64,000 nucleotides of DNA from Gemmatimonadota bacterium (GCA_016874005.1 VGVQ01000004.1:106968-170967); one strand, 5' to 3'. Shown: positions 2,183 to 63,721, counted from the stretch's first letter. Notes: generated by a model from the sequence alone, not told the origin. Program-made: numbers and translations.

Positions 2183-3240
2183 GACGCTGGGTCGCGATCG
2201 GGCTCTCGCTCGGCTTGGCTGGGCCGGCGTGGAGCCAGTCGGGCGGCCGGCCGCCTGGTGCCGAGTACCAGGGCCGCGGGTTCGAGTTCCGGCCGGTGGC
2301 GCCCGGGGTCTACCTGGCGGTGGGGACCGGGAAGATCAGCGCCGAGTCCAACGCGGTGATCATCGAGGGCGACCGAGACCTCCTGGTGGTCGACTCGGAG
2401 ACCAGCCCGGCGGCCGCCTGGGCGTTGCTCCAGGAGCTGCGGGCGGTCACGCCCAAGCCGGTCAAGACGGTGGTGTTGACCCATTTCCACTACGATCACG
2501 CCCACGGGACCCAGTCGTTTCCGCCCGGGGTCGAGGTGATCGCCACCGAGTACACCAAGGCGATGCTGGCCGAGGGCAAGTCGATGAGCCACCCGACGGC
2601 GGCGGGGAACCGGTCGTTCGCCTCGGCGCAGGTCGGCAACGCGACCCGGGCGCTCGACACGGCCTCGACCCCGGCGGTCCGCCGGGAGCTGGCCGAGCGG
2701 CGGGAGGTCTGGCAGCGGTACCTCGCCTCGATCGCCACCCTGAAACCGGTGGTGCCTAACGTTACCCTGACCGGGCGGCTCACCCTGAGCCGGGGCGGCC
2801 GGGAGATCGTCATTCTCCATCCCGGTCCGGCCCATACCGCCGGCGATCTGGTGGTCTGGCTGCCGGCGGAGCGGATCCTGGTGACCGGCGACCTGATCCA
2901 GCCCAACCTTCCTTACATGGGCGACGGGTTCTTCCCGGGCTGGGCCGACGCGATCGACTCGCTGCTGGCCCTGCGGCCGGCGGTGGTGCTCCCCGGGCAT
3001 GGCGACGCGATGTCCGACATGACCCGGGTCGAGCGGCAGCGGGACTACCTCCGGGATATCTACGCTCAGACCGCCACGCTCAAGCGCGAGGGCCTGGCGC
3101 CCGACGAGGTCGCTCGGCGGCTCGACTTGACCAAGTATGATGCTGACTACCCTCGGCCGCCGGGGTGGACCGACGAGATCGTGGTCCGGCGCCGGCTCGG
3201 GACGGTGCGGCGGATCTTCGAGGTGATCGACGGGAGGTGA
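2179..3240 (+). CDS. MBL-fold metallo-hydrolase, secreted
   Basis: The ATG at 2179 overlaps the upstream stop (ATGA). The signal peptide is MRRWVAIGLSLGLAGPAWSQ, and the HxHxDH motif is THFHYDHAHG. Only the C-terminal third of track ORF 547..3240 looks like real protein. Confidence 0.85.
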   Translation: MRRWVAIGLSLGLAGPAWSQSGGRPPGAEYQGRGFEFRPVAPGVYLAVGTGKISAESNAVIIEGDRDLLVVDSETSPAAAWALLQELRAVTPKPVKTVVLTHFHYDHAHGTQSFPPGVEVIATEYTKAMLAEGKSMSHPTAAGNRSFASAQVGNATRALDTASTPAVRRELAERREVWQRYLASIATLKPVVPNVTLTGRLTLSRGGREIVILHPGPAHTAGDLVVWLPAERILVTGDLIQPNLPYMGDGFFPGWADAIDSLLALRPAVVLPGHGDAMSDMTRVERQRDYLRDIYAQTATLKREGLAPDEVARRLDLTKYDADYPRPPGWTDEIVVRRRLGTVRRIFEVIDGR

Positions 3241-3241
3241 A

Positions 3242-4402
3242 TCACCCGGGCGGCCCCGGCTTCCAAACCTCTCGAAACAGCCGAGTGAAGTTCCCGCCGA
3301 CGACCTTCTCGATCCGGCTATCCCGATAGCCCCGGGCCGCCAGCTTCTCGGCGATCTGCTCCATCCGTCGCGGGGTATTGAGGTCCACGACGAACATGTA
3401 GTCCTCCTCGCGAGGCGCGGCGATGCCGAGGCGCCTCCGGGTCGCCACGAACTGCTTGTGGGCATCGGCGTACTCGGGAGTGACCTCGTGCGGGGTGATC
3501 GACAAGTCGCTCCCGATCCCGACGTGATCTTCGCCGCAGACGTTGACGGCGTGCTCGATCTGGCGGATCAGGTCGGCTGAGGTGGGCTGACCGGCGGGGT
3601 TGATGAATGGCATCAGGTAGATCCCGATCACCCCGCCCTTGTCGGCCATTCGCTTCAAGGTCGCGTCCGACTTGCTGCGGGGGTGGTCGAACACCGCCTT
3701 GCAGCCGCTGTGGGTGATCGCCACCGGCCCGGCCGATGCCGCGATGCCCGTGTCGGTCGTCTTGGTGCCGCAGTGCGAGAGATCCACCAGCATCCCCAAC
3801 TCGTTCATCCGCGCCACCACGGCCCGGCCATGGGCGCTCAGCCCGGCGTCGTCCGGCTCGAGGCAGCCGTCACCGAGGAGGTTGCGGCCGTTGTAGGTCA
3901 ACTGGACGATCTTGACGCCGAGCCGGTGAAACAGGTCGAGACGGGCCGGGTCGCCCTCGAGCATCACCGCGTCCTGAAACCCGAAGATCAGGCCGAGCCT
4001 GCCGGTCCGCTTGGCGGTCTCGATGTCGGCCACGGTCCGGATCTTGAGAAAGACGTCCGGGTGAGCGACCAGTTCGCGCTCCCAGTAGCCGATCCGGGCG
4101 ACCGTGGCATCGAAGCTGGCGTGGCCCGGCCCGCTCCCACTGAGCGTGACGTTGACCGCGGTGATCCCTGAGGCCTTGCAGTTGGCCACCATCTCGGCGG
4201 TCAGCGGCCCCGACCCGCTGGCGGGCGAGTTGAACGGGCCCGGGTTGGCCAGGCAGTCGATGACGATGGCGCGGTCGTATCCGGGCCACCCGCTTCGGCG
4301 GAAGAAGCCCAACGATCCCACCGGGACCGCGGTGGAGCCGGTAGAGGCGGCCGTGGCGGCGGTGGCGGCGACGAAGTCGCGTCGGGAGATGGCTACGGTC
4401 AT
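3242..4402 (-). CDS. membrane dipeptidase (peptidase M19, renal dipeptidase family) with a Tat-type signal
   Basis: The start MTVAISRRDFVAATAATAAS carries a twin-arginine-like motif, and GGAG lies 3 nt upstream of the ATG at 4402. M19-like blocks are present (VIDCLAN, VDLSHCG, HVGIGSDL). Confidence 0.85.
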   Translation of the reverse strand: MTVAISRRDFVAATAATAASTGSTAVPVGSLGFFRRSGWPGYDRAIVIDCLANPGPFNSPASGSGPLTAEMVANCKASGITAVNVTLSGSGPGHASFDATVARIGYWERELVAHPDVFLKIRTVADIETAKRTGRLGLIFGFQDAVMLEGDPARLDLFHRLGVKIVQLTYNGRNLLGDGCLEPDDAGLSAHGRAVVARMNELGMLVDLSHCGTKTTDTGIAASAGPVAITHSGCKAVFDHPRSKSDATLKRMADKGGVIGIYLMPFINPAGQPTSADLIRQIEHAVNVCGEDHVGIGSDLSITPHEVTPEYADAHKQFVATRRRLGIAAPREEDYMFVVDLNTPRRMEQIAEKLAARGYRDSRIEKVVGGNFTRLFREVWKPGPPG

Positions 4403-4483
4403 GGGCTCCCTCGGGGTCAATGGTTTCCGCGGCGGACCCGAACCCGGCCTGGCCGATCGCGAGTCCAGTGCCGGCCTGGCCGA

Positions 4484-8218: not shown

Positions 8219-8246
8219 CCCGGCCGCCGGGAGCCGCGGGGCGGCG

Positions 8247-8732
8247 TTAGGCCGACGCGTCCAGCAGCGCCACGATGTCGGGCTCGATCGCCTCGGGCGT
8301 CGCTCGCGAGCCGAAGCGGGCCACCACCTGGCCCTCCTTGTCGACCAGAAACTTGGTGAAATTCCACTTGATGGCCTCGGTTCCGAGCACGCCGGGGCGA
8401 GCGGCCTTGAGAAAGCGGAAGAGCGGGTGGGCCCCATCGCCGTTCACCTCGATCTTGGCGAACATCGGGAAGGTGACGTCGTAGGTCTTCCCGCAGAACG
8501 CCATGATCTGGGCTTCGGTGCCGGGCTCCTGGCCGAACTGATCGGACGGGAAGCCGAGTACCGCGAAGCCCCGTGGGCCCAAGCGACGGTGGAGGGCCTC
8601 GAGTCCCTTGTACTGCGGGGTGAAACCGCACTGGCTGGCGACGTTGACGATGAGGAGCGTCTGGCCGCGGAACTCGGCCAGCGAGCGCTCCCGGCCGTCG
8701 CTGGCCGTCGCGGTGAAGTCGTGGACGTTCAT
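8247..8732 (-). CDS. glutathione peroxidase (Cys-type)
   Basis: 161 aa with LIVNVASQCGFTPQY and WNFTKFLV, the hallmark GPx motifs. Its start overlaps the stop of the upstream acyl-CoA synthetase (ATGA). Confidence 0.92.
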   Translation of the reverse strand: MNVHDFTATASDGRERSLAEFRGQTLLIVNVASQCGFTPQYKGLEALHRRLGPRGFAVLGFPSDQFGQEPGTEAQIMAFCGKTYDVTFPMFAKIEVNGDGAHPLFRFLKAARPGVLGTEAIKWNFTKFLVDKEGQVVARFGSRATPEAIEPDIVALLDASA

Positions 8733-13916: not shown

Positions 13917-15203
13917 GTGGTTGGCTATCGAAGCAGCCGCGGCGGCGGCGCGGTGGGGTTGGACGAAGCGATCCGGCGAGGGTTGGCTCCGGATGGCGGC
14001 CTCTATCTCCCCACCGAAGTGCCGCGGCTGCCGTCCGGCTATTTCCACGGCGCCGGCGACCTGGCCTCGGTGGCGGCCCGGTGGCTCGAGCCGTTTGCCG
14101 CCGGGAGCCGGCTCGCCGGCGCGGTGGGAGGTCTCGCGGCCGAGGCGCTCGCGATACCCGCGCCGCTGGTGGCGGTGGCGGACCGGACCTGGGCGCTCGA
14201 GCTGTGGCACGGCCCGACCGCGGCGTTCAAAGACGTCGGGGCCCGATTTCTCGCGGAGGCGTTAGGCTTCCTCCGGGCCCACGCCGATCCGCCGGTCACG
14301 GTGCTGGTGGCCACCTCCGGCGACACCGGGGGCGCGGTCGCCGCGGCCTTTCATCGCCGGCCGGGGTTCCGGGTCGGGATCTTGTTTCCCAAGGGACTGG
14401 TGTCGCCGACCCAGGAGCGTCAGCTCACCTGCTGGGACGACAACGTGGTGTCCTGCGCGGTGCGGGGCACCTTCGACGACTGCCAACGGCTGGCCAAGGC
14501 TGCGTTCCAGGACCAGTCCCTCGCCGAGCGGTTCCGCTTCACCTCGGCCAACAGCATCAACATCGGCCGGCTGCTGCCCCAGGCGGCCTACTACGCCGCG
14601 GCGAGCCTCATGGTCTGGGGGCAGTGCCGGGAGCCGCTTTCGTTCGTCATCCCGAGCGGCAACCTCGGGAACGCCTTCGGCGCCGTCCTGGCGCGGGCGG
14701 CGGGGCTCCCGATCGGCGACATCGTGCTGGCCCACAATCGGAACCGCCCGGTGGTGGACTTTCTCGAGACCGGGGTGTGGAATCCTCGGCCCAGCGTACC
14801 GACGATCGCCTCGGCGATGGACGTGGGCGATCCCTCGAACTTCGAGCGGTTCCGAAGCTGGTACCCCGCGCCGGGGGCGCTGGCCCGGACGATCTGGGCC
14901 GACAGCGTGGACGACGAGGCGATTCGTGCCAGGATCCGGGGCGATTGGCCAGCGTTAGGCCGGGTCTGGTGTCCCAATACCGCGACCGCCGCCGAGGTGT
15001 TGGCGCGGCTCCGGACGCGGGGTGGGGCAGGGGGCCACTGGGCCATCGTCGCGACGGCGCATCCGGCCAAGTTTCCCGAGGTGGTCGAGCCGCTGGTGGG
15101 GCATTCGATCGAGCGACCCGCGTCGCTGGCGGGACTGTTCGGGCGCCCGGCTCGCTCGGTGGAGATCGACCCGACCATAGCGGCGCTGGCCGCGGCGCTC
15201 TGA
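13917..15203 (+). CDS. thrC: threonine synthase
   Basis: GTG start 9 nt after the thiolase stop. It has ...YRSSRGG..GLDEAIRRGLAPDGGLYLP and a FKDVGARF PLP-lysine block. Confidence 0.85.
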   Translation: MVGYRSSRGGGAVGLDEAIRRGLAPDGGLYLPTEVPRLPSGYFHGAGDLASVAARWLEPFAAGSRLAGAVGGLAAEALAIPAPLVAVADRTWALELWHGPTAAFKDVGARFLAEALGFLRAHADPPVTVLVATSGDTGGAVAAAFHRRPGFRVGILFPKGLVSPTQERQLTCWDDNVVSCAVRGTFDDCQRLAKAAFQDQSLAERFRFTSANSINIGRLLPQAAYYAAASLMVWGQCREPLSFVIPSGNLGNAFGAVLARAAGLPIGDIVLAHNRNRPVVDFLETGVWNPRPSVPTIASAMDVGDPSNFERFRSWYPAPGALARTIWADSVDDEAIRARIRGDWPALGRVWCPNTATAAEVLARLRTRGGAGGHWAIVATAHPAKFPEVVEPLVGHSIERPASLAGLFGRPARSVEIDPTIAALAAAL

Positions 15204-15407: not shown

Positions 15408-17603
15408 ATGTTGCCGACCGACCCCGCCATCCCGTTCCGACGGTCTCTCGCCGTCTCGGTAGCTCTTTGGATTGCGGGGTGCGGCTCCGATCCGGTGACC
15501 CCGCCACCCCCACCCCCACCACCAGCGGTCGCAACGGTCGAATTGGAGGCGCCCGCCGGTGTGCTCGAGGCCGGGGCCACGTTGGTCTTGACCGCCCGGG
15601 CCAAGGATGCCGCGGGCGCCACCATGTCCGGGGTCCAATTCGGTTGGGCTTCGTCGGCGACGACGGTGGCCACCGTCGACAACACCGGCTTGGTTCGCGG
15701 GGTCGCGGCCGGGCCGGCCACGATCACCGCGACCGCCGGCGGCAAGAGCGCCTCCCTCGCTCTCGCCGTCCGCGACACGACGACCCTCGGCGCCACGCTG
15801 TCCGGACGGATCGAGCGGGTTCGCCTGACGTTGCCGGCTGGGCGGACCTATCGGGTGGACCAGGATCTCACCATCCAAGTCGACAGCAACCTGACGATCT
15901 CCGGAACGATCGAGGTCGTTCCGGGAGCCGATCTGACGGTGGTGGGCAAGCGGATCGAGGTCACCGGCGCGATCGGTTCGACCACTCCGCTGCCGGCGGC
16001 CACACGTCAGGGAGGGAGCCACTTGGCCGCCGGGGCCGGAACGTTCACCAGCGTCACCCAGGACTTCTACACCTCCGGCAACATTCTCTTCCCGGGGCCG
16101 ATGCAGTTCGCGGGCAACGGCCCCAACAGCACCATTCTGATTGACGGAGTGCTGATCGAACCGGCCGCGGCCCCCAGCGGCACGGCGTCCTCACGCCAAG
16201 GTGAGGACGGTTATCCGCTCGACATCGGGTCGCCGGCCGCGATCGCGGCCGGTCAGGGGCCCGGACGCACCCCCGGACCGATCACTGACTTGTTGATCAG
16301 GGCCGGTGGCAAGGTCAAGGGCGGGCTTGGTGGCGCAGGATTCGCCGTCAGGGACCGTACCGCCGCGACGGTGACCGGCAATCTGCTGTCTGCCCAAACC
16401 GGCCAAGGCGGTCGCGGCGGCGACTTGGTCATCGTGTCGACCCGGATCGACAACGCAGGGGAGATCCGGGCCGGGGAGGGTCGAAGGGGCGGGGACGTCG
16501 GTTTCCTGCTGCTTCCGATCGACCCGCTTCCGCAATACCTCCAACTGCGGGATGGATCCGGGCCGGCTGGCGAGGGGGAGAACCTCGAGGCGATTCTCGG
16601 ATCGGGGGGAGCCGGCGGGGACCTCTCGATCGTGGCGGCGACGATCGTGGGCGGCGGCACGATCGGGCTCGCGCCGGGAGGGCCACCGCCTAACGTTTCC
16701 GTCAAGGGCGGGAATGGGGCCGCGGGAGGTGCGGGGGGCTATCACGACGTCCAATTGGGGCGGCCCGGACCCGTGGGCCGAGCGACCGTGGTGCCCCAAG
16801 TCGCCGTCGCCCCCGCGTTGCAAGAGCGGTTCGCTCGGATCGAGGTCGTCGATGCCGCCAACGGAGGTGCATCGCCCACGGCCGCCAAACCCGGTGGGGC
16901 CGGCGGATCGTTTGGGTATCAGCGGGATCCGGCGGCTCCCAAGCCGATTTTCCTCTTTGCCAGGGCGGCCCGGGGCGGCGCCGGGTTCGACGGTTGCGCC
17001 GCGCCGGTGCCCAATTCCGGCAGCGACGGTGGCGTAGGTGGTACCTTGGACATCGGTGACGCGACCCTAAACCTGAACGCTGCCTTTGGCGGCGGACCCG
17101 GTGGGCGCGGCCTGTTCCGTGCCGGCCGTGGCGGCCGGCGTGGCTCCCGCCTGACCCCAACCGTGCAGCCGCTCGGCAACGACGGTCTCGACGGCGTCAC
17201 CTGCGGCTCCAGCTTCCTCACCATCAGCCCGACGGCGATCTCGGTCGAGGTGATCAACTCGGCCAACGGGTGCGGGCCGACAACCTATGGTGGGCAAGGC
17301 GTCAAGTTCACCAGTCGGCTCAACTTCCCGCTCAACATCCTGGGCACCATTACCAACCAACAGGGAAACACTCTCGCGACCTTCAGTGGTGGCCAGTCGT
17401 CGAAGCTCATCGTGGTCCCGGCCAATGGCACGGTCACCGAGCCGATCAACGGCAACACCTGCTTGCCGAGCAACGACAGCAAGTCGACGATCGGCTTCTC
17501 GACCGAGGACGCGGCGACGGTGATCTCGAGCATCCCGCTCGAGGTGCGCTGCACCCTGAACTGTTTCGCCGCCGCGTCACCCCCGGCGCCCCATCGACGC
17601 TGA
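15408..17603 (+). CDS. surface lipoprotein with a Big_2 (bacterial Ig-like) domain and a long glycine-rich repeat region
   Basis: Lipobox LWIAGC followed by a poly-Pro linker. The Big_2-like segment is VATVELEAP...ATVDNTGLVRGVAAGPATITATAGG. At least 8 GGxGG(D)-type repeats follow, then a Cys-containing C-terminal domain. Confidence 0.7.
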   Translation: MLPTDPAIPFRRSLAVSVALWIAGCGSDPVTPPPPPPPPAVATVELEAPAGVLEAGATLVLTARAKDAAGATMSGVQFGWASSATTVATVDNTGLVRGVAAGPATITATAGGKSASLALAVRDTTTLGATLSGRIERVRLTLPAGRTYRVDQDLTIQVDSNLTISGTIEVVPGADLTVVGKRIEVTGAIGSTTPLPAATRQGGSHLAAGAGTFTSVTQDFYTSGNILFPGPMQFAGNGPNSTILIDGVLIEPAAAPSGTASSRQGEDGYPLDIGSPAAIAAGQGPGRTPGPITDLLIRAGGKVKGGLGGAGFAVRDRTAATVTGNLLSAQTGQGGRGGDLVIVSTRIDNAGEIRAGEGRRGGDVGFLLLPIDPLPQYLQLRDGSGPAGEGENLEAILGSGGAGGDLSIVAATIVGGGTIGLAPGGPPPNVSVKGGNGAAGGAGGYHDVQLGRPGPVGRATVVPQVAVAPALQERFARIEVVDAANGGASPTAAKPGGAGGSFGYQRDPAAPKPIFLFARAARGGAGFDGCAAPVPNSGSDGGVGGTLDIGDATLNLNAAFGGGPGGRGLFRAGRGGRRGSRLTPTVQPLGNDGLDGVTCGSSFLTISPTAISVEVINSANGCGPTTYGGQGVKFTSRLNFPLNILGTITNQQGNTLATFSGGQSSKLIVVPANGTVTEPINGNTCLPSNDSKSTIGFSTEDAATVISSIPLEVRCTLNCFAAASPPAPHRR

Positions 17604-18327: not shown

Positions 18328-20106
18328 ATGCGCCTGATGGTCGCGATCGGTTTGGCCATGGCCGTGATGGCCCCGCCCCGGGCGGTTGCCCAGCGTCCGA
18401 CCTGGCCGATCGTGGTCGAGAAGAACGTCGAGGCCCGGATGCGCGACGGCGTCATTCTTCGGGCCGACCTCTACCGGCCGGACGCCCGCCGCCGTTTTCC
18501 CGCCTTGCTGCAGCGAACCCCCTACTCCAAGAACCCCGGGAGCGACGATCGGTTCCGGCGCCTGGCCGCGCGCGGGTACCTGGTGGCGGTCCAGGATACC
18601 CGGGGTCGCTACCTGTCCGACGGCGTCGCCCGGCCCCACGACGAGGGGGAAGACGGGTTCGACACCGTCGAGTGGTTGGCGGCCCTTCCGTGGGTCGACG
18701 GTCAAGTCGGGATGTTTGGTGGGAGCTATAGCGCCACCACCCAGTTGCTCGCGGCGCCGCTCCGCCCCCCGCATCTGGTCGCTCTCTTCCCCTCCGCCTC
18801 GTACGCCAGCCGGTATGACATGGTATTCCAGGGTGGTGCCTTCTACCTTGCCGACGGCCTGTCGTGGAACCTGGGCCAAGCGATGGACGCCCGCCGCCGA
18901 GCCCTCGACCCCACGGCCGACCGCGACGGCGAAATCGGACTCTCGGCGGCCGATCGGCGACTGCTCCGAACCCGCTGGCTCTTGGCCTTGCCACTGGTGG
19001 GCATGAAGGAACTCGACCTCCCCCGGTACATGCCGGGCTACTTCGAGATGCTGGCCCACCCGTCCTACGACGACTACTGGGCCACCTTCGACGTGGCGGC
19101 CCGGCATGCCCGCTTCGAGGTGCCGGCTTATCACCTGACCGGTTGGTACGACGCCCTGCTCAACGGGACCCTCGCCAATTTCACCGGGCTCAGCCGGAAC
19201 GCCGCGACCGATCGGGCCCGCCGGAGTCAGCGCCTCATCGTCGGCCCATGGACCCACGCCAGGCCTAACGCTAGTTCCACCGCGATCGACGGGGTCGACT
19301 TCGGACCGGATGCCGGGCTCGACTCGTTCGAACTGATGGTCGGATGGTTCGATCACTGGACCGGCCCGGAAAGCAGCCGCGACTTTCCCGGCCCCCCGGT
19401 TCGGATCTTCGTCATGGGGGAGAACCGGTGGCGCGACGAGCCCGCCTGGCCGCTCGAGCGGGCCCGCCCGACCGACTACTACCTCTCCGCCGTCGGTCCG
19501 GCCAACACCAGAAACGGCGGCGGCTTACTGGCCAGCGTTCCACCCGCCCGTGGAACGCCGCCCGACACCTTCAGCTACGATCCCGCCAACCCGGTGCCCA
19601 CCGGAACGAGCGGCGCCTATTCGCGCGCCCCGACCGACCAGCGGGCCCTGGAAACCCGTCCGGACGTGCTGGTGTATTCCACCGAACCGTTGTCGACGGC
19701 CGTCGAGGTAACCGGCCCGGTCACGCTCGAGGTCTGGATCGCGTCCTCGGCGAAAGACACCGATTTCACCGGCCGGCTCGTCGACGTCTATCCCGACGGC
19801 ACCGCGCGGGCCCTCACCGACGGCATTCTCCGCGCTCGCTACCGAGCGAGCAAGACCGCGCCAACGCTACTCGAGCCCGGTCGCCCCTATCGACTGACCA
19901 TCGACCTCGGCGCTACCAGCAACGTCTTTCTGCCCGGCCATCGGATTCGGCTCGAGGTATCGAGCAGCAACTTTCCTCGCTACGACCGGAACCCCAACAC
20001 CGGGGCGCCGTTCGGCCAGTCGGCCGAGACCCGCATGGCGAGTCAGACCGTCTTCCATGACGCGGACCGGCCCTCGCGACTCATCCTCCCCGTGGTGCCG
20101 CGATGA
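18328..20106 (+). CDS. CocE/NonD family hydrolase (S15 X-Pro dipeptidyl-peptidase-like), secreted
   Basis: The signal peptide MRLMVAIGLAMAVMAPPRAVAQ starts at the in-frame ATG 18328; the track ORF starts at TTG 18298. The serine nucleophile block is GGSYSATTQ, and a C-terminal CocE-type beta-domain is present. Confidence 0.85.
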   Translation: MRLMVAIGLAMAVMAPPRAVAQRPTWPIVVEKNVEARMRDGVILRADLYRPDARRRFPALLQRTPYSKNPGSDDRFRRLAARGYLVAVQDTRGRYLSDGVARPHDEGEDGFDTVEWLAALPWVDGQVGMFGGSYSATTQLLAAPLRPPHLVALFPSASYASRYDMVFQGGAFYLADGLSWNLGQAMDARRRALDPTADRDGEIGLSAADRRLLRTRWLLALPLVGMKELDLPRYMPGYFEMLAHPSYDDYWATFDVAARHARFEVPAYHLTGWYDALLNGTLANFTGLSRNAATDRARRSQRLIVGPWTHARPNASSTAIDGVDFGPDAGLDSFELMVGWFDHWTGPESSRDFPGPPVRIFVMGENRWRDEPAWPLERARPTDYYLSAVGPANTRNGGGLLASVPPARGTPPDTFSYDPANPVPTGTSGAYSRAPTDQRALETRPDVLVYSTEPLSTAVEVTGPVTLEVWIASSAKDTDFTGRLVDVYPDGTARALTDGILRARYRASKTAPTLLEPGRPYRLTIDLGATSNVFLPGHRIRLEVSSSNFPRYDRNPNTGAPFGQSAETRMASQTVFHDADRPSRLILPVVPR

Positions 20107-22219: not shown

Positions 22220-22221
22220 CG

Positions 22222-35639: not shown

Positions 35640-35651
35640 CGGGGCTCCTGG

Positions 35652-42135: not shown

Positions 42136-42311
42136 TGGATCCGGGGGAACGGGTGTCGTGGGTCTCGGTTCGGGGAGTCCCCGACAGACGAATGATAACG
42201 GAATGGCCCGGTGGGCGACGGGCTGGCTCGAGCGCAGGTTCGTTCCACCCTGGGGAGACCCAGGCCGAGACGGTCTCCTGGTATGGGGCGGGTCGGCCGG
42301 GGTAGGCTCGC

Positions 42312-44016: not shown

Positions 44017-45438
44017 ATGGTCACGTCTCTCCTGGCGGCATTCCTGCACGGGGCCGAGGTGGCGCCGGCCAGCCCGGCGGATACGGTGTTCGCCTTCGTC
44101 GGGGCGACCGTGGTCGACGGCCGGGGCGGGTTGCCGATGCCGGACGCGGTGGTGGTGGTCGAGGGAAACCGGATCCGGGCCGTGGGCCCCCGCGGTCAGG
44201 TCGCGATTCCGCGGGGGGCACACCGGGTGGATCTGGCGGGGAAGTTCCTGTCGCCGGGGTTCATCGACGTTCACGCGCACGTCACGCTAGGTCCGGTCGA
44301 GTTCGACCGGACCAAGCGTCCGCCGGCCCTGGTCGCCCGGACGGACCCGGGGGGCGCCGAACGCCACCTCGCGATGTTGCTGGCGGCCGGGATCACCACC
44401 ATCCGCGATCCGGGCGGGGTAGCGGAGCGGGTGGTGGCGGTGCGGGACTCGGTGGCTCGGGGCGAACTGGTCGGTCCTCGGATGGTCGTGGCCGGTGAGG
44501 TGATCGATCGGGTCGCGTTCGAGGGCCTCACCCGGGCGGTCACCACGCCCGAGGAGATCCGTCGAGAGGTGCGGCGACAGGCCGCGATCGGAGTCGACAT
44601 CATCAAGCTGTATTCGTCGCTCGAGCCCGCGCTCGTCGAGGCCGGCATCGACGAGGCCCATCGACTCGGCTTGCCGGCGATCGGCCACGTCATGGCAACG
44701 ACCTGGACCGAAGCGGCTGGGTTGGGTCTCGACGGGATCGTCCATATCCTCGGTTGGTCGCCCGATCTCCTACCCGAATCCAAGCGGCCGGCCTACCGGG
44801 CGATGATGGCCGGGTCGCAGTTCATGTACGGGTGGTTGGAGCTGGTGGACCTCGACGGCCTCGAGATGCGACGGGCGATCGACCTGATCGCGGCGCGCGG
44901 GGTGACGCTCGATCCCACCCTGGTGGTGTTCGAACGAGCGGTCCGCGGCGACGACCCCGCGGTGATCCGCGCGGCAACGTTAGGCATGGCATCGCCGGCC
45001 CTCCGGAAGAACTGGGAGTCCTTCTTCACCTTCAATATCGGCTGGACCGCGGACGACTATCGCCGAGCCCGGGCGGCGTGGCCCCGGGCGCTGGCGCTGA
45101 CCAAGCGGCTCCATGACCGCGGGGTACTCCTCGCGGCCGGGACCGACGCCAACAACCCCTGGGTGGTGCCGGGAGAGAGCTACCATCGGGAGTTGGAGCT
45201 CTTGGTCGAATCCGGCATCCCGCCGCATGAGGTCCTCACCCTGGCGACCCGCAACGGCGCCCGGATGATCGGGCTGGACGGCGAAACCGGGACGGTGGCC
45301 GTGGGCAAGCGGGCCGACCTGGTGGTCCTTCGCCAAGATCCGACCCAGTCGATCGGGGCCACCCGGTCGATCGAGTGGGTGATGGCCTCTGGCCGGCGAC
45401 ACCTGCCGGACCGGCTGCTCGCTCCCTGGCGCCGGTAA
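44017..45438 (+). CDS. amidohydrolase family protein (imidazolonepropionase / Xaa-Pro dipeptidase-like), exported
   Basis: GGAGG lies upstream of ATG 44017. FIDVHAHV is the HxH site, and LAAGTDANNPW and GKRADLVVL are typical blocks. Confidence 0.85.
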   Translation: MVTSLLAAFLHGAEVAPASPADTVFAFVGATVVDGRGGLPMPDAVVVVEGNRIRAVGPRGQVAIPRGAHRVDLAGKFLSPGFIDVHAHVTLGPVEFDRTKRPPALVARTDPGGAERHLAMLLAAGITTIRDPGGVAERVVAVRDSVARGELVGPRMVVAGEVIDRVAFEGLTRAVTTPEEIRREVRRQAAIGVDIIKLYSSLEPALVEAGIDEAHRLGLPAIGHVMATTWTEAAGLGLDGIVHILGWSPDLLPESKRPAYRAMMAGSQFMYGWLELVDLDGLEMRRAIDLIAARGVTLDPTLVVFERAVRGDDPAVIRAATLGMASPALRKNWESFFTFNIGWTADDYRRARAAWPRALALTKRLHDRGVLLAAGTDANNPWVVPGESYHRELELLVESGIPPHEVLTLATRNGARMIGLDGETGTVAVGKRADLVVLRQDPTQSIGATRSIEWVMASGRRHLPDRLLAPWRR

Positions 45439-46959: not shown

Positions 46960-47105
46960 CTGCCTAACGTGAGGGCCACCGGCGTCGTGCCATGACGGCG
47001 GATTCCGGGGGTCTTCAGGATCGATTCATGGCCGCCGTCCGATCTTTGGGGACGACGGCGACCGCCCGGGCGCATGCGGATCGCCGCCCAACCACGGGGG
47101 TTTCC

Positions 47106-50406: not shown

Positions 50407-51470
50407 GCGCTGCGACGCAGCATACCACCGGTTCGATCGCCGCGATGCTCGGTGCCGAGTTGATCGGACCGGCGGAGTTGGCGGTGACCGGGCTCGCCAC
50501 GATCGACCAGGCCGAGCCTGGGCATTTGACCTTCATTCGATCGGCGACCTACGCGGATCGGTGGCCCGGGAGCCGGGCGACCGCGACGTTCGTTTCCCGT
50601 GGGATCGACCTTCCGGCCCATCCCGCCGCGGGTCGGGCGGTGCTGGTCGTCCCGGACGCCGAAGCGGCGATCCAAGACCTCATCCCTGCTTTTTCTCCTC
50701 CGGCCCCGCAATATCCGGCGGGGGTTCACCCCACCGCCGTGGTCGATGGGTCGGCCCGGGTGGCGGCTGACGCGTGGATCGGGCCGTACTCGGTGGTCGG
50801 GCCGGGGACGGTCGTCGAAGAGGGGGCCGTGCTGGTGGCTCAGGTCTACCTCGGTGCGGCTGCGAGGGTCGGGGCGGGTACGGTGCTCCACCCCGGGGTG
50901 CGGCTCCTCGATCGGAGCGAAATCGGAGCGCGCTGTCTGCTGTGGCCGAACGTGGTGGTGGGGGCGGACGGGTTCGGATTTCGGCCCAGCGCGGATGGGC
51001 AGTGGCTCGAGAAGGTCCCTCACATCGGACGGGTGGTGGTGGAGGACGACGTCGAGATCGGGGCCAACACGTCGATCGATCGGGGCAAGTTCGGGGCGAC
51101 CCGGATCGGGGCGGGCAGCAAGATCGACAACCATTGCCAGATTGCCCACAACTGCGTCATCGGTCGATCGGTGATCGTTTGTGGGATGACGGGGATCGCG
51201 GGCTCGGTGTCGATTCATGACGGGGCGGTGATCGCCGGTCACGTCGGCATTGCGGATCACGTCGTGATCGGCGCCGGCGCGGTGGTCGCGGCCAAGGCGG
51301 GAGTGATTGCCGACGTGCCGGCTGGAGCAACGGTGTTCGGGACCCCGGCGGGGCCCCATCGGGAGCAGATGCGGAGTTTCGCGGCCTTACGCCGGCTGCC
51401 GGACGCGCTGCGCCGCCTGGAGCAACTCGAGCGGATGGTGCTGCCCCTGTCGGCCGAGGAGGATCGTTAG
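50403..51470 (+). CDS. lpxD: UDP-3-O-acylglucosamine N-acyltransferase
   Basis: The N-terminus SIAAMLGAELIGPAELAVTGLATIDQAEPGHLTFI is followed by left-handed beta-helix hexapeptide repeats. The TTG start overlaps the PRTase stop by 4 nt. Confidence 0.85.
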   Translation: MSAATQHTTGSIAAMLGAELIGPAELAVTGLATIDQAEPGHLTFIRSATYADRWPGSRATATFVSRGIDLPAHPAAGRAVLVVPDAEAAIQDLIPAFSPPAPQYPAGVHPTAVVDGSARVAADAWIGPYSVVGPGTVVEEGAVLVAQVYLGAAARVGAGTVLHPGVRLLDRSEIGARCLLWPNVVVGADGFGFRPSADGQWLEKVPHIGRVVVEDDVEIGANTSIDRGKFGATRIGAGSKIDNHCQIAHNCVIGRSVIVCGMTGIAGSVSIHDGAVIAGHVGIADHVVIGAGAVVAAKAGVIADVPAGATVFGTPAGPHREQMRSFAALRRLPDALRRLEQLERMVLPLSAEEDR

Positions 51471-51511
51471 GCGTCCCCTGCTCGAAGGCGACCGGGGGGC
51501 GGGCCTCGGGA

Positions 51512-55549: not shown

Positions 55550-55613
55550 CGCTCTCCCGAACCGGCCTCCTCACCCAGCCGGACCGGGCGGGACTCGGTG
55601 AGCCCCGCCGGGG

Positions 55614-56912
55614 CTATCGCACCGCGTAGAGGTGGCCATCGGTGCTGCCGAAGTACACCACCCCGTCGACCACGACCGGGGAGGACAGCACCGAACCCAA
55701 CGTCATCATGGTGCGCATCCCGATCATCATCCCGTCGAGCGTTCCGTCGGGATACATCTCCCGGGTGTTCATGACGCCGTCCGGGTTGGTGTACCTCGCC
55801 CCATGAGCGCGATTCCCGTCGGTCTGAAACCGGCCCGCGAGCCGGCCGGTCGTTAGGTCGACGGCGTTCAGATAGCCGTCGGAGGTACCGTAGAAGGCCC
55901 GGTCTCCGGCCAGGGCCGGCGAGGAAAACGACACCGCGAAGTTCTGGAGATCGAGCTTGACCGCCCCGGTGGCGACATCGAGCCCCTTGAAGCGGCGCCC
56001 GTCCGAGGTGGGGAAGTAGACCACGCCATCTCGGACCGCGGGCGAGGCGATGGTCCAGCCCATCTTGTTGTCGTGTTTCCAGCGGAGAGCCCCGGTCGCG
56101 AGATCGACGGCGTGGAAGTGGCCATCGCGTCCCCCGACGAAGACGGTGTTGCCGGTCACCGCGGCCGAGCTGGCGATCCCAATCTGGTTGTAGTTGACGG
56201 TATCGTCGCCGGTGGTGTAGCGCCACCGTTCCTTGCCGGTCGTCGCGTCGATGGCATACAGATTCCGGTCCCAGCTTCCGACATAGACCACGCCGTTGGC
56301 CACCGCGGGCGAGGCATGCACCACATCCCCGGTCGGAAAGGCCCAGCGGAGCTCGCCGCTCCGGGCGTCGAGCGCGTACACCTGGTGATCTCCGCTCCCG
56401 ACATAGACGACGCCTCCGACCACGGCGGGCGAGGAAAGGAAGACGTCGAAGGGATCGGGCATCCGTTCGGTCCGGGGCATCGCGCCATGGATCCCGGGAG
56501 CGGTGAAACGCCGCTCCCCTTTGGTCTTGAAGCTCCACTTTCGCTCCCCGGTCGCGGCATCGACGCCGTAGATCGAGCCGTCGAGACTGGCGATGAACAC
56601 CAGGCCATCGGCGACCGCGGGAGAGGAAGCGATCGGCCCTGGGGTCGAGAACTTCCAGGCCTGGGCGCCGGTGGAGCGATGGATGGCGTAGAGCGCTCCG
56701 TCGGTGCTCCCGACGTAGACGAATTCGCCGACCACCGCGGGGCTCGAGATCACTCGGCCGCCGGTCTTGAACTTCCAGGCCAGGGTCGAAAGGCTCGGTG
56801 CCGGGGCCCGATAGACCCCCAGGTGATCCGGTCCGCCGCGGAACATGGGCGACTGGGCCGGCAGGGTAGTTGCCAGGGTGGTCAAGGCGATCGCGGCGAG
56901 ACATCGGGACAC
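55614..56912 (-). CDS. PQQ-like (BamB-type) beta-propeller repeat protein, secreted
   Basis: It has a signal peptide and 7-8 repeats of the ...VYVGS.DG.LYA(I/V)D..TG...W blade motif. Confidence 0.85.
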   Translation of the reverse strand: MSRCLAAIALTTLATTLPAQSPMFRGGPDHLGVYRAPAPSLSTLAWKFKTGGRVISSPAVVGEFVYVGSTDGALYAIHRSTGAQAWKFSTPGPIASSPAVADGLVFIASLDGSIYGVDAATGERKWSFKTKGERRFTAPGIHGAMPRTERMPDPFDVFLSSPAVVGGVVYVGSGDHQVYALDARSGELRWAFPTGDVVHASPAVANGVVYVGSWDRNLYAIDATTGKERWRYTTGDDTVNYNQIGIASSAAVTGNTVFVGGRDGHFHAVDLATGALRWKHDNKMGWTIASPAVRDGVVYFPTSDGRRFKGLDVATGAVKLDLQNFAVSFSSPALAGDRAFYGTSDGYLNAVDLTTGRLAGRFQTDGNRAHGARYTNPDGVMNTREMYPDGTLDGMMIGMRTMMTLGSVLSSPVVVDGVVYFGSTDGHLYAVR

Positions 56913-57134
56913 GGTGCGGTTCCGAGGTTGGGACTTCCGGAAAGATGGCGGTGGGCGAGGCGATTGCCTTGAAGGATGTTGGCCGGTCCCGCTCGCTGCC
57001 GGTCCGCGGTCCGCGGTCCGGGGTCATTGGGGGTGGAGGGGAAGGGGGTGGGGGAGGGCTGAGGGGCGCGACTGATGGCAGCCGGTCGGCGGGTTCTGTT
57101 AGGTTACCGGGGGCCGCCAACCGGGAGAAAGTCA

Positions 57135-57656
57135 ATGCGGGGCTTGGTATTGGTCGTGGGCTTGATGACGAGTTCGGGCGTGGCCGTGGGGCAGTCGACC
57201 GGGGCCGCCGACGACGTGACCACCCTCGACGGGATCATCCGGGCGTATTACGACGTGGTGAGCGGGCCAGCCGGCTCGCTGCCGGATCCCAAGCGCGACT
57301 CGACCCTCCACCATCCGAACGCCCAGGTGACCCTGCTCACCCGACGGGCCGATGGCTCGGCGACGGTCGCGGTCGGTACCTTGGCGGACTACTATCGCCA
57401 GAGCGGCACGGGGCCCCGGAAGCGGGGGTTCTTCGAGCGGGAGATCCACCGGGTGACCCAGCGGATCGGCGCGCTGGCCCACGTGTGGAGCACCTATGAA
57501 TCGTCCGAAACGCCGGGCGGGCCCGCATTCACCCGGGGGATCAACAGTATCCAGCTGTATTGGGACGGCCGGCGGTGGTGGATTCTGGGTTGGGTCTTCG
57601 ACGACGAGCGGCATGGCAATCGGATCGCCGCGGAGTATCTGCCAGGCCAACGTTAG
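57135..57656 (+). CDS. secreted NTF2-like protein
   Basis: It has a signal peptide. The pattern is IIRAYYDVVSG...RGINSIQLYWDGRRWWILGWVFDDE. The start is ATG 57135 with SD GGGAGA. Confidence 0.6.
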   Translation: MRGLVLVVGLMTSSGVAVGQSTGAADDVTTLDGIIRAYYDVVSGPAGSLPDPKRDSTLHHPNAQVTLLTRRADGSATVAVGTLADYYRQSGTGPRKRGFFEREIHRVTQRIGALAHVWSTYESSETPGGPAFTRGINSIQLYWDGRRWWILGWVFDDERHGNRIAAEYLPGQR

Positions 57657-57714
57657 GTCGCCGTCGCGTCGGCCCGCTGTCGCCGGCGGGCCTCGGGACG
57701 ATTAGACTGCGACG

Positions 57715-58779: not shown

Positions 58780-58953
58780 CGGCGCGGGGCCTTGCCAGAC
58801 ATCATCTCTGGGTGGCCGAGTAACGGACGCCACCACCGCCGGGCTGATGACGAGATGACCTCGACCTGATGGGGACCTGAATTTCCGGATCTAGCGTTCC
58901 TCCCGTCAACCGGAACCGGCAGAGGCCGGTCCGAACTCGCTCAAGGAGGAACG

Positions 58954-60540: not shown

Positions 60541-60570
60541 CGCCGGAGCCGGGGCGGCAGGACGGGACGG

Positions 60571-62811
60571 TTAGAAGTCCACCGTCATGGTCAAGTCGAA
60601 GAGCCGAGGCGCCCCCGGCATCAGCCCGCGGGACCGATCGACCAGGTAGACCCGATCGAAGAGGTTCTTGACCCCGGCCGAGAGGCGGGTCCCGAGTCCC
60701 GGGATCCGCCAATCGGCCGAGGCGTTCCATACGGTTACCCCGGCGATAGGGCCTTGCTGGCCGTCGGCGACGAGCCTGGCCGTGTTGACCGGATCGGTGA
60801 ACTGGGCCGAGGTGTGAACGGCCTCGACCGAGGCGCCGAACCGGGCGCCGACATCGATGCCTAACGCCGCCCTGAGGACGTGCTCGGGGGCGTAGGGCAG
60901 TCGGTTGCCGGTGACCGAGACCCGGGGCCTCAGGCCGGCCGGGTCCGGGGCGGGGTAGACCTTGCCGACCAGGTCGCCGGTCCCGGTGCCGATCCAGGCG
61001 TAGCGGGCGCTCTCGAATCGGGCCACCGCGACCCAGGTCCAGCTCGCGCTCAACCATCCGCGGGTGGTGCCGGTGGCGCCGAACGCCTCGGTGCCAAGCC
61101 GGCCGGCGAACTCGAGGCCGCGATGGAGGGTTTCTCCGGCGCTGGTGAGGGTGGCACCACTCCCGCCGGCCACACTGGCCGGGACGATTTGATTGGTGAA
61201 GTCGAGCTGAAACGCGGTGGCCTCGAGGCGGAGTCCGGCCGGTCCATCGTAGCGGACCCCGAGTTCGGCGTTCCAGCTCTCTTCGGCCGCGAGGTCCACC
61301 ACGCCCCCGTCGTTGGTCAGGACGTCCTCGGTCCTGGGCGGGGCAAAGCCGCGGTGCCAGCCGCCGAACACGGTGGCGGGCCCATCGCCGGGCCGCCAGG
61401 TCACCCCGATACCGGGGATCAGCCGGAACAAGGTGGTCTCGCCTAACGGCGCGGTCGGGTCGAGGCGGTTGTGGCGCTGGTAGCGGACGTACTCGGCCCG
61501 GAGCCCTGGGGTGACGGAGAAGGGGCCCGAGCCGAGGCGAAGCTGCCCGAATCCGGCGAAGGCGCCGTTCTTCCGGAGGTTGCTCTCCCGCAGACCGGCG
61601 TTGGGGTCGGTCGACGGCCCGGCGGCCCGTGCCAGGGGCGAGGCGCCGTTCTCCTGGCGCCGGTCCTGAACCTCGTAGTGGGCTCGGGCGCCCAGCTCGA
61701 GGCTGGCGTGGCCGGACGAACCGAGCCCGATCAACGCCCGGGGTTCGACACCAACCACCCGGTACTGGCGGAGCCGGCCCTCGTTGCCGCAGGTGGTGGC
61801 GAGGTTGGCGAGGCCGCCGCAGGCCGGATCGCTGGCGTCGTTAGGCCGCTGGGCGGAGTTGCTGGACTGACGCCACCAGTCGCGCGCGAACCAGGAGCCA
61901 TAGGCGCGGGTGGTGACCACGACGCCGCCCCGGGCCAGCCGGTGGGTGGCGGCGAGGGCGACCCGGTCGGCGAACATCGAGTCCCGCTCGAAGACGTTGG
62001 CGAACGGGTCTTGGGCATACTCGGCCTCGGTCAGGCCGGAGTAGGTCAGCTGCGATCGTTCGCGATAGACGTTGCCCTTGACGGTCAGCTCGTGACCGTC
62101 GGGGAGGTCGATGCTGGCCTTGATGGTGCCGTCGGCGATGGTGGTGCCGAGGTTCCGCCGGCCGGCCGCGGCCCGCTTGAGCAGCAGGTCGCCCACCACG
62201 CCGCCCCACTCCGCACCGGTTCGGTAGCGGACCTGGCCGAGGCGGTAGTCGCGGTTGCCGCCGCCGAGCGAGAACGACCCGGCGGCACCGGATCGCGGCG
62301 GGGTGGGGGACAACAGGTTGATCACGCCGCCGATGGTGCGGGGGCCGTAACCGATCTGGCTCGCGCCTTTGAGGACCTCGACCCCGGCGAAGCGATCGAT
62401 AGGCGGAACGTAGTAGGAGGCATTGTCGCCGTAGGGCGCGATGGAGAAGGGAACGCCGTCCTCCAGGAGCAGCACCGCCTGAGATCGAGTCGGGTTGAGG
62501 CCGCGGATGCCGATGTTAGGCCGGATCCCGATTCCGTCTTCGTCGCGGACGAATAGCCCTGGGGCGCCGCGAAGGGCGTCGTGGAGGTTCCGGGGCCGTT
62601 TGGCGCGCAATTCGGCGGCGTCGAGAACGAAGCCGGATCCTGGAATGGTCCGGAGCCGAGAGCTGCGACCGATGACTTCGATTGCGGGGAGGTCCGCGGC
62701 GCGGCGGCGACCGGTATCGGGTGCTTGAGGCGGGTGGGCTCGAGCCGGCTCGTCGGGAAGGCGCGGCTGGGTCGGCGGCTGGAGCAGCGCGAGGATGGCA
62801 AGCCGAATCAT
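60571..62811 (-). CDS. TonB-dependent receptor (siderophore-type)
   Basis: The plug domain reads NLHDALRGAPGLFVRDEDG...IGIRGLNP. It is followed by a 22-strand-barrel-like C-terminus that ends with the terminal aromatic ...TMTVDF. Confidence 0.9.
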   Translation of the reverse strand: MIRLAILALLQPPTQPRLPDEPARAHPPQAPDTGRRRAADLPAIEVIGRSSRLRTIPGSGFVLDAAELRAKRPRNLHDALRGAPGLFVRDEDGIGIRPNIGIRGLNPTRSQAVLLLEDGVPFSIAPYGDNASYYVPPIDRFAGVEVLKGASQIGYGPRTIGGVINLLSPTPPRSGAAGSFSLGGGNRDYRLGQVRYRTGAEWGGVVGDLLLKRAAAGRRNLGTTIADGTIKASIDLPDGHELTVKGNVYRERSQLTYSGLTEAEYAQDPFANVFERDSMFADRVALAATHRLARGGVVVTTRAYGSWFARDWWRQSSNSAQRPNDASDPACGGLANLATTCGNEGRLRQYRVVGVEPRALIGLGSSGHASLELGARAHYEVQDRRQENGASPLARAAGPSTDPNAGLRESNLRKNGAFAGFGQLRLGSGPFSVTPGLRAEYVRYQRHNRLDPTAPLGETTLFRLIPGIGVTWRPGDGPATVFGGWHRGFAPPRTEDVLTNDGGVVDLAAEESWNAELGVRYDGPAGLRLEATAFQLDFTNQIVPASVAGGSGATLTSAGETLHRGLEFAGRLGTEAFGATGTTRGWLSASWTWVAVARFESARYAWIGTGTGDLVGKVYPAPDPAGLRPRVSVTGNRLPYAPEHVLRAALGIDVGARFGASVEAVHTSAQFTDPVNTARLVADGQQGPIAGVTVWNASADWRIPGLGTRLSAGVKNLFDRVYLVDRSRGLMPGAPRLFDLTMTVDF

Positions 62812-62829
62812 GGCGCGCCTCAGTTATTT

Positions 62830-62848
62830 GAAAATGAGTATCATGTGC
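62830..62848 (-). promoter_or_regulatory. Fur-box-like sequence in an AT-rich patch upstream of the TonB-dependent receptor
   Basis: GAAAATGAGTATCATGTGC matches the 19-bp consensus GATAATGATAATCATTATC at 13/19 positions. It lies 19-37 nt upstream of the receptor ATG, in the only strongly AT-rich stretch of this part of the window. Confidence 0.5.
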
Positions 62849-63226
62849 AAATATTCTGGCGTGCAAGTTACTGGCAACACAACAGTTCCGGAACGGGATC
62901 CCTCCGATCGGGGTAACCGCCGGCCCAAACGCCCCCCAATTCCCGAGCGTCGCCGCAGGAGACCCAACGCCGATTCGAGGTCGAGCTTGGGTCCGCTGGG
63001 GACGGACCGGGGTGGGTCGAGCCTGACGGTGCGCCCCGGGCCGACTCGGTCGTCGTCTTCCCGGGCCAACGGCTCGGCACCGTGACCGTCTTGGCGATCG
63101 CGTCTCTATTGGTGGTGCCGGCGAATCCGTTCGATGGTCGCTATCCGCCGGTTCCACGCGATGGTGTTGCCGGGGGTGGGCGAACCCGGGCCGCCCTGAA
63201 GAGGGGCCCAGTGACGAGCCGCGAGC

Positions 63227-63721
63227 CTAACGAGCCCTGGTCCCCGACAGCTTGAACCCCGTTTGCTGATTTGCCCCGATAAAGCGGGCCCGGTCCTCGG
63301 AAAGCGTCAGGGTGTCGACGTAGCCCGTCTCGCGCCACCGGAAGGTGAACCGATGCGGATCTTCCTCATCGCACTCCCAGACGCCATTGATCGTCGGGAG
63401 GGGATCGGCCGACACCCGATACCAGTGGAGGCCTCGGTCCTCCGCCACCGCCACCACCCCGCCCGTCGAGAGCCAATCCCACCTGCCGACGGCGTCGACG
63501 CACCGCGGCGCTGGCGGGGCGTCGGTCCGCCGATCCATGACGAACGCGACGATCCCCACGACCCCCGCGATGACGGTGATCAGCGCCACCACCGGGTGAT
63601 CACCCCAGTTTCGCCAAAGCGGCTTCGGCCCCGCAGAACGGTCGGAGCGCTCGGTGATCGTGCCGCGCCCCGGTTCCGGCGGGGGCGGGTCTCCAGGATT
63701 CGGGGGCGTTGGATCGGTCAT
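63227..63721 (-). CDS. hypothetical membrane-anchored protein
   Basis: A Pro-rich N-terminus is followed by the TM helix VVALITVIAGVVGIVAFVM and a roughly 90-aa extracytoplasmic domain. The start is ATG 63721; the track uses TTG 63772. Confidence 0.5.
   Translation of the reverse strand: MTDPTPPNPGDPPPPEPGRGTITERSDRSAGPKPLWRNWGDHPVVALITVIAGVVGIVAFVMDRRTDAPPAPRCVDAVGRWDWLSTGGVVAVAEDRGLHWYRVSADPLPTINGVWECDEEDPHRFTFRWRETGYVDTLTLSEDRARFIGANQQTGFKLSGTRAR

Follow-up and report, generated by a model that had tools for sequence, protein, structure and literature searches.

A hyper-abundant asymmetric octamer in Gemmatimonadota DNA and its likeness to DNA uptake sequences

DNA uptake sequences are known, as of a 2025 survey, in Neisseriaceae and Pasteurellaceae only; about half of the known copies lie in terminators, often as inverted pairs, non-coding DNA is enriched in them, and inside genes they are biased to low-cost reading frames. 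Among the known hyper-abundant words, those that are both asymmetric and unskewed are uptake sequences. HIP1 (GCGATCGC) of cyanobacteria is an octamer that is over-represented 15-300-fold, that lies mostly in genes and whose function is still unknown. Here we describe the octamer CGTTAGGC (reverse complement GCCTAACG; looser form YGTTAGGY) in a stretch of 64,000 nucleotides from a Gemmatimonadota bacterium (GCA_016874005.1 VGVQ01000004.1:106968-170967; hereafter the window, with positions counted from its first letter) and in DNA of two relatives, L012 (CAZLLP010000003.1) and L003 (JAXLXW010000014.1). We propose by analogy, with a probability of about 0.35, that CGTTAGGC may be a lineage-specific, genome-wide DNA recognition word, occurring on both strands about once per 3 kb, upheld by a force on DNA rather than on protein or RNA, and acting, like an uptake sequence, as a tag of self.

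Word count is not explained by codon usage or protein sequence

Exact matches to CGTTAGGC/GCCTAACG number 21 in the window, of which the + strand has 9 and the - strand 12; the count, the coordinates and the 9:12 orientation ratio given by an initial annotation of the window, made from the sequence alone, were all confirmed (Table 1). An independent-base model of the window yields 2.35 copies, where the initial annotation had estimated about 2, that is, a 9-fold excess; dinucleotide shuffles yield 0.80 copies, with none of 100 shuffles attaining 21; and Markov models yield 0.97 copies at order 1 and 0.85 at order 3. At Markov orders 4-6 the expectation climbs to 5.7-19.6 copies, because the model is then trained on the word's own sub-words within the 64-kb sample. 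CGTTAGGC ranks first among the enriched octamers of the window, with an enrichment of ~22-26-fold; the excess first described as about ten-fold is real but was set too low, 9-fold being the value under independent bases only. The hexamer GTTAGG occurs 27 times in the window, with Y on both flanks in 26 cases.

To call genes, we scored codon usage by log-likelihood, training the model on long open reading frames (ORFs) of high third-position G+C (GC3); this gave 52 genes and 90% coding DNA, and the calls matched both the annotation of a public contig of the same organism and Pfam domains. Permutation of synonymous codons within these genes (300 trials), which preserves all proteins and per-gene codon counts, produced 2.77 +/- 1.13 copies with a maximum of 7, far too few to account for the observed 21; this control is conservative because the rare codons contributed by the word are kept. 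Synonymous shuffles of the related loci gave 0.63 copies for L012, where 10 are observed in 21.5 kb, and 0.23 copies for L003, where 5 are observed in 21.5 kb. With these independent gene calls, 20 of the 21 window copies overlap a gene and the copy at 46962 alone lies outside, as initially annotated. Across the window, L012 and L003, ~20 copies are in sense and 12 in antisense orientation to their genes, a difference that is not significant. We conclude that the word count is not explained by codon usage or protein sequence.

The initial annotation had proposed selection at the DNA level rather than the protein level, and had named Markov models, codon-preserving shuffles and counts in related genomes as tests. 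Neither of the refuting conditions that it set is borne out: codon-preserving shuffles fall far short of the count, and enrichment is present in related genomes. Selection or drive at the DNA level is well supported: synonymous shuffles fail to reproduce the count; copies occur in both gene orientations, in three frame contexts, in stop codons and once between genes; the rare TTA inside the word is retained across diverged relatives; and some copies needed an amino-acid replacement. The alternative that the word follows from protein sequence or codon usage, belongs to a dispersed mobile element or arises from faulty assembly can appeal to the 12-13 of 21 window copies whose sense-strand reading is X-Leu-Gly or Arg-stop. 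It is almost certainly wrong, being refuted by the shuffles (2.8 vs. 21), by seven antisense copies and one intergenic copy, and by independent assemblies from several runs that are identical. Further, the copies have no flank similarity, two other metagenome-assembled genomes (MAGs) carry the word at orthologous positions, and words truly explained by codon usage respond differently to the same shuffle test.

Coding cost and retention of the word

Of 19 TTA codons in window genes, 10 sit inside the word, and exact copies overlap four stop codons (three TAG and one TAA), with a fourth TAG overlapped by a CGTTAGGT variant. We counted occupancy at all positions in the window, L012 and L003 where the protein permits the word synonymously. 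The word occupies 9 of 18 xPN[VADEG] positions, 18 of 90 [SPTA]LG positions, 2 of 50 [SRCG]LT positions and none of 44 xVR[LPHQR] positions. Occupancy thus broadly tracks coding cost, from one mildly rare codon, to one very rare codon, to two rare codons, and the results show that the word occupies the cheapest coding sites: Pro-Asn, then X-Leu-Gly, then stop codons. Alignments of homologues show two routes to the word, pure synonymous use (61839) and amino-acid change (14953). The copies at 61441, 60859 and 14260 lie at variable positions and encode residues unusual for the family; amino-acid replacements accompany the word at 14953, 61441 and 14260. The results show that pressure on DNA is traded against translational and protein cost. 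As a separate observation, TAG is used as a stop uncommonly often for a genome of 69% G+C, ending 17 of the 52 window genes, 8 of the 14 genes of L012 and 9 of the 15 of L003.

The word is also retained between diverged relatives. L012 and L003 are sisters (fumarase DNA 89.6% identical, flanks 70-80%). At an Asn-Ala-Leu-Gly site of fumarase, L012 has GCG TTA GGC and L003 has GCG TTA GGT, whereas nearly all other relatives have GCN CTN/TTG GGN, the exception being the lower-GC relative L017, with GCG TTA GGC; the window has GCC TTG GGG at this site and lacks the word there. Among the eight L012 copies in blocks aligned with L003, three are exact in L003, two differ by C8->T only and three are absent; a ninth copy, at a TAG stop, is common to both and lies just outside the aligned block. 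Retention of the whole octamer (3 of 8, against a background of 0.18) is not significant in a crude test. Retention of its rare codons is: A/T-ending codons at conserved amino acids are identical between L012 and L003 in 83 of 439 cases (19%), whereas those inside the word are kept in 5 of 7 cases (p = 0.0036) and TTA in 4 of 4 (p = 0.0013), in a small sample. This comparison at synonymous positions had been suggested by the initial annotation, and its direction is clear, small as the sample is: the word is retained at orthologous sites above background.

Orthologous retention is shared with HIP1, and an alternative is that CGTTAGGC is a selected chromosomal word of that kind, whose copies a lineage-specific factor of the nucleoid, of repair or of methylation would bind or modify and which organism-level selection would keep, as argued for GCGATCGC. 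The ~22-26-fold enrichment falls within the range of HIP1, and the word is mostly genic, owes its count to neither codons nor peptides and persists at orthologous sites; its lack of enrichment in non-coding DNA suits a word needed everywhere over a word driven into free sites. We nevertheless consider a HIP1-like word unlikely. The described HIP words are all palindromes that embed methyltransferase sites, whereas CGTTAGGC is asymmetric, and per-site selection over ~1500 copies would have to exceed the cost of a rare codon or of an amino-acid change, which is hard to achieve without drive.

Table 1. Copies of CGTTAGGC, end-position variants and coding classes in the window
Feature	Position	Strand	Context
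Exact copy	2754..2761	-	Antisense in metallo-beta-lactamase-fold gene 2179-3240(+); G CCT AAC G (Pro-Asn)
Exact copy	8245..8252	+	Antisense; TTA 8247-8249 = TAA stop of glutathione peroxidase gene 8247-8732(-)
Exact copy	14260..14267	+	Sense in threonine synthase gene 13917-15203(+); GCG TTA GGC (Ala-Leu-Gly); homologues mostly Phe-Ala or Leu-Ala
Exact copy	14953..14960	+	Sense in threonine synthase gene 13917-15203(+); GCG TTA GGC; Leu where most homologues have Tyr
Exact copy	16688..16695	-	Antisense in Big_2-domain gene 15543-17603(+); CCT AAC (Pro-Asn)
Exact copy	19263..19270	-	Antisense in S15 peptidase gene 18328-20106(+); CCT AAC
Exact copy	23114..23121	+	Sense in amidohydrolase gene 22192-23943(+); GCG TTA GGC
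Exact copy	25363..25370	-	Sense in Ser/Thr kinase gene 24667-27303(-); TCG TTA GGC
Exact copy	28905..28912	-	Sense in BNR-repeat gene 28203-29474(-); TCG TTA GGC
Exact copy	31305..31312	+	Antisense in short-chain dehydrogenase gene 31026-31964(-); CGC CTA ACG (Arg-Leu-Thr); sole copy in this frame
Exact copy	33273..33280	-	Sense in MacB/FtsX permease gene 33015-35639(-); GCG TTA GGC
Exact copy	34365..34372	-	Sense in MacB/FtsX permease gene 33015-35639(-); CCG TTA GGC
Exact copy	42310..42317	-	Sense; TAG = stop of Exo_endo_phos gene 42312-43844(-); CGT TAG GC
Exact copy	43430..43437	+	Antisense in Exo_endo_phos gene 42312-43844(-); CCT AAC
Exact copy	44978..44985	+	Sense in amidohydrolase gene 44017-45438(+); ACG TTA GGC
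Exact copy	46962..46969	-	No confident gene; between 46626-46796(-) and hydrolase ORF starting at 46992 or 47181(+)
Exact copy	51465..51472	+	Sense; TAG = stop of LpxD-like gene 50403-51470(+)
Exact copy	60859..60866	-	Sense in TonB-dependent receptor gene 60571-62811(-); GCG TTA GGC; homologues vary L/V/A/T
Exact copy	61441..61448	-	Sense in TonB-dependent receptor gene 60571-62811(-); CCG TTA GGC; variable loop, Leu in none of the listed homologues
Exact copy	61839..61846	+	Antisense in TonB-dependent receptor gene; CCT AAC; Arg-Pro-Asn-Asp invariant in homologues; purely synonymous
Exact copy	63225..63232	-	Sense; TAG = stop of ORF 63227-63592(-)
Variant TGTTAGGC (C1->T)	22428..22435	+	Inside gene 22192-23943(+)
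Variant TGTTAGGC (C1->T)	62514..62521	+	Inside TonB-dependent receptor gene
Variant CGTTAGGT (C8->T)	55851..55858	+	Inside gene 55614-56912(-)
Variant CGTTAGGT (C8->T)	57651..57658	+	TAG = stop of gene 57135-57656(+)
Double end variant TGTTAGGT	57097..57104	+	Intergenic
Class: sense NCG TTA GGC (X-Leu-Gly)	14260, 14953, 23114, 25363, 28905, 33273, 34365, 44978, 60859, 61441		10 copies
Class: sense, TAG = stop of gene	42310, 51465, 63225		3 copies
Class: antisense, TAA = glutathione peroxidase stop	8245		1 copy
Class: antisense G CCT AAC G (Pro-Asn)	2754, 16688, 19263, 43430, 61839		5 copies
Class: antisense GC CTA ACG	31305		1 copy
Class: outside confident genes	46962		1 copy

Distribution, end variants, strand and spacing

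The window comes from a MAG of Gemmatimonadaceae, its fumarase being 88-89% identical in amino-acid sequence to those of many Gemmatimonas/Gemmatimonadaceae MAGs. Outside the window, L012 and L003, the word is at background, both in ~25 further members of the family and in ~1.7 Mb of DNA from elsewhere: ~25 other Gemmatimonadaceae loci have 6 copies in 445 kb, metagenome loci 9 copies in 840 kb, loci outside the family (mostly proteobacterial) 0-1 copies each, and the nearest relatives by the TonB-dependent receptor gene 0 copies in 53 kb. Enrichment in related genomes is therefore present in L012 and L003 but extends to few Gemmatimonadaceae lineages, most of the family being at background. 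A single origin of the word is not established, because a single-gene tree does not place the window lineage as neighbour of L012 and L003. No synteny was found between the window and the Gemmatimonadaceae loci L003-L028, L046 and L057, alignments not extending beyond the fumarase gene. Four sequencing runs yielded Logan contigs that match the window at 99.99-100% identity and extend it by only 817 bp; because such contigs are 100% identical there is no polymorphism to analyse.

Closer relatives were sought with single genes. With threonine synthase and the TonB-dependent receptor as protein queries, the next-best matches were 64-65% identical and belong to relatives without the word; a metagenome scan with threonine synthase gave a best identity of 63%, and a search with the L012 fumarase gave no closer match than 91%. 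Among 5.8 billion proteins, none but its own copies is more than 64% identical to the window threonine synthase (best named matches in Gemmatimonadales and Steroidobacteraceae), and the receptor has no match between 100% and 65%. Either the window lineage is poorly sampled, or these two genes are divergent or acquired. On an unrelated high-GC metagenome contig, L085, whose threonine synthase is 58% identical, two copies of CGTTAGGC lie 28 bp apart (7539-7574) with no other in 7.9 kb; this pair is probably due to chance.

No comparable word was found in the loci of sister lineages. The top words in L005, L022, L026 and L004, considered as candidate "dialects" of sister lineages, are tandem 7- or 12-base repeats rather than dispersed words; the arrays (L005:18772-18820, L022:3208-3250, L026:615-705 and L004:1503-1530) consist of CTTTCTA repeated seven or more times, GATACCT repeated six times, GCTTAGCGGCCG repeated eight times and a CCCCCTA-containing pair, and are unrelated to the dispersed octamer. 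The GC-rich words GAAGGCCA (L006), GAGGGCGA (L003), CCGCCGTC (L013) and AGGCGCTC (L008) are explained largely by protein sequence and codon usage, synonymous shuffles giving means of 7.5-9.4 vs. 12-17 observed. One of them, GAGGGCGA, has 13 sites in L003 (e.g. 3415, 3889, 12809 and 17043) with strands 1:12 and a shuffle mean of 8.4; its polarity could stem from the orientation of genes alone or from a skew like that of KOPS.

The end-position variants named by the initial annotation (TGTTAGGC twice, CGTTAGGT twice and TGTTAGGT once) were all located. C->T at position 1 or position 8 is the only over-represented mismatch, in the window and in the relatives alike. All five YGTTAGGY end variants of the window lie on its + strand, the G-rich strand; they may stem from cytosine deamination that differs between strands, or from methylated cytosines at the ends of the word. 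For a HIP1-like word, the confinement of C->T variants to the two end cytosines is a point in favour, cytosine methylation being a speculative link. The variants also bear on a further alternative, motif-directed biased repair or gene conversion, according to which a mismatch nuclease (e.g. a Vsr-like partner of a methyltransferase) would turn near-matches in heteroduplex into the word, the word itself being functionless. Such per-site drive would account for occupied cheap sites and amino-acid replacements without any benefit to the organism, and the restricted phyletic pattern would suit a gained gene cassette. We consider biased repair very unlikely, however, as the excess of C->T end variants is the opposite of T:G-to-C:G very-short-patch repair, an 8-bp asymmetric specificity is atypical of such enzymes, and no such gene was seen in the window or in the L012 DNA examined. 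Very-short-patch repair is moreover known to change word counts by ~2-fold, not 25-fold.

The conserved sequence is limited to the octamer. Alignment of 36 sites from the window, L012 and L003 shows no flanking consensus, in line with the initial annotation; the eight bases aside, the one signal is a weak purine preference at +9 that is consistent with codon structure. No partner motif was found within 100 bp of the copies and no hairpin around the word, and an extended or bipartite motif, or a hairpin, was accordingly rejected. The spacing of exact copies ranges from 398 to 9394 bp, in agreement with the 0.4-9 kb given initially, with a coefficient of variation of 0.81 vs. 0.94 for random placement (p 0.25). 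Regular spacing was thus also rejected, and this counts against a HIP1-like word, with the reservation that a 64-kb window is too short for testing kb-scale periodicity. The longest word-free stretches are 34373-42309 (7.9 kb) and 51473-60858 (9.4 kb); they are not obviously foreign DNA, since the latter includes the conserved fumarase gene. Scans of the window for tRNAs and Rfam families gave no matches. Three promoter-like matches (0.2 expected) cluster on both strands at 62828-62877, where the DNA directly upstream of the TonB-dependent receptor gene forms a gap richer in A/T.

The strands of the word do not appear to follow replication. GC skew is positive in 14 of the 16 4-kb bins of the window, while the strands of the word stand at 9:12; under a 75% skew, 12 or fewer of 21 would occur with a probability of 0.056 if the word had one polarity and with a much smaller one if it had the opposite polarity, a test of limited power. 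In L012 and L003, where GC skew is near zero, the ratios are 7:3 and 4:1. The segregation- or replichore-type role raised by the initial annotation is disfavoured because the word shows no strand skew. The same ratios bear on the alternative of a Chi-like signal, that is, a word read on single-stranded DNA by a RecBCD- or AddAB-type helicase-nuclease that switches degradation to recombination and so marks self. CGTTAGGC is, like E. coli Chi, an asymmetric octamer, and it lies mostly within genes; the density of E. coli Chi is near its ~1 copy per 6 kb per orientation, and Chi sequences vary by taxon; repair of two-ended breaks, further, would require both orientations everywhere. A Chi-like signal is nonetheless quite unlikely: in addition to the lack of skew, CGTTAGGC opposes codon usage, is ~25-fold enriched and forces amino-acid changes, whereas known Chi words are G-rich, suit common codons and are only few-fold enriched.

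A proposed uptake-like self tag and the known hyper-abundant words

The uptake-like self tag is the reading that we favour. A putative sequence-specific DNA-handling protein would read CGTTAGGC as a mark of self, as uptake sequences are read in Neisseriaceae and Pasteurellaceae; DNA fragments with the word would be preferentially taken up and recombined; mutations that create the word would in consequence spread by molecular drive; and translational and protein costs would restrict where the word persists. Per-site drive of this kind accounts most simply for half-saturated cheap sites and changed amino acids. The function is proposed by analogy: neither the window nor the ten L012 genes that were scanned encode a plausible reader. 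An uptake tag had been among the roles suggested initially, and it remains the best analogy, with the difference that CGTTAGGC, unlike known uptake sequences, is not biased to terminators or intergenic DNA.

Several results weigh against the uptake-like self tag. The word is confined almost wholly to genes: non-coding DNA of the window, L012 and L003 has 1 copy in ~11 kb, vs. 35 copies in ~96 kb of coding DNA, that is, 1 of 36 copies. No copy overlaps a terminator-like site of the window (terminator-like hairpins themselves being no commoner than in shuffled sequence), and there are no inverted pairs, the nearest two copies being 398 bp apart. No competence, pilus, recombination or methylase gene was found among the 52 window genes or the ten scanned L012 genes, and we found no literature linking Gemmatimonadota to uptake sequences or natural competence. 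The word-bearing DNA comprises ~107 kb in total. One-mismatch variants overall show no excess (37 observed vs. 41 expected); this is only weakly informative because the counts of known uptake sequences fall ~80-90-fold at one mismatch, and the mismatch halo predicted at 25-fold enrichment is below detectable size. At only 8 bases and with no flanking preference, CGTTAGGC is also shorter than known uptake signals.

In other respects CGTTAGGC resembles uptake sequences. The uptake sequences of Neisseriaceae (DUS; GCCGTCTGAA core) and Pasteurellaceae (USS; AAGTGCGGT core) are likewise short, exact, asymmetric, hyper-abundant words with equal strands and lineage-specific occurrence, and, like them, CGTTAGGC favours low-cost frames inside genes (PN over xLG, xLT and VR, with the occupancies given above) and variable positions (60859, 61441 and 14260). 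The hosts of DUS and USS are naturally competent and show sequence-biased uptake by a dedicated receptor (ComP; ComN proposed). Differences from both families are a lower enrichment, of ~25-fold, and the phylum Gemmatimonadota; by taxon and by sequence, CGTTAGGC is a member of neither. As a tentative extension of the analogy, CGTTAGGC might represent a third, independently evolved uptake-sequence family, the first outside Proteobacteria, with self-preferring transformation in a Gemmatimonadaceae clade and an 8-base, near-purely genic signal.

The other known words differ from CGTTAGGC in more basic features. HIP1 resembles it as an octamer in its mostly genic location, its independence of codons and peptides, its orthologous retention and its lineage-specific presence or replacement, whereas HIP words are palindromic, with orphan methyltransferase sites, and CGTTAGGC is not its own reverse complement. 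Chi (GCTGGTGG in E. coli) shares with it the form of an asymmetric octamer; CGTTAGGC, unlike Chi, is unskewed by replication, not G-rich, against codon usage and more enriched. KOPS, SRS and other architecture-imparting octamers are strongly polarised toward the terminus; they resemble CGTTAGGC as eight-base words placed along the chromosome and differ from it in that the strands of CGTTAGGC stand at 9:12 although the GC skew of the window has a single sign. REP, miniature inverted-repeat transposable elements (MITEs) and other dispersed mobile repeats differ from CGTTAGGC, which has no extended conserved sequence or hairpin around its core.

To our knowledge, few kinds of hyper-abundant word are established: the two proteobacterial uptake families, cyanobacterial HIP1 and, more weakly, Chi and KOPS. 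The phenomenon described here is of a known type; new are the sequence (we found no paper containing the octamer CGTTAGGC), the phylum, the asymmetry without skew and the almost purely genic location. The pressure on CGTTAGGC is strong enough to account for half of the rarest Leu codons and for amino-acid change. The word provides a handle for finding its reader, whether that is a receptor for DNA uptake, a protein regulating a nuclease, or a factor of the nucleoid or of DNA modification, and, because close relatives differ in having it, the reader can be sought by phylogenetic profiling; the word might also be used to mark the lineage in binning and to detect foreign DNA in these organisms. 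To the known hyper-abundant words, CGTTAGGC would add an octamer from Gemmatimonadota that is sharply defined, asymmetric and free of strand skew.

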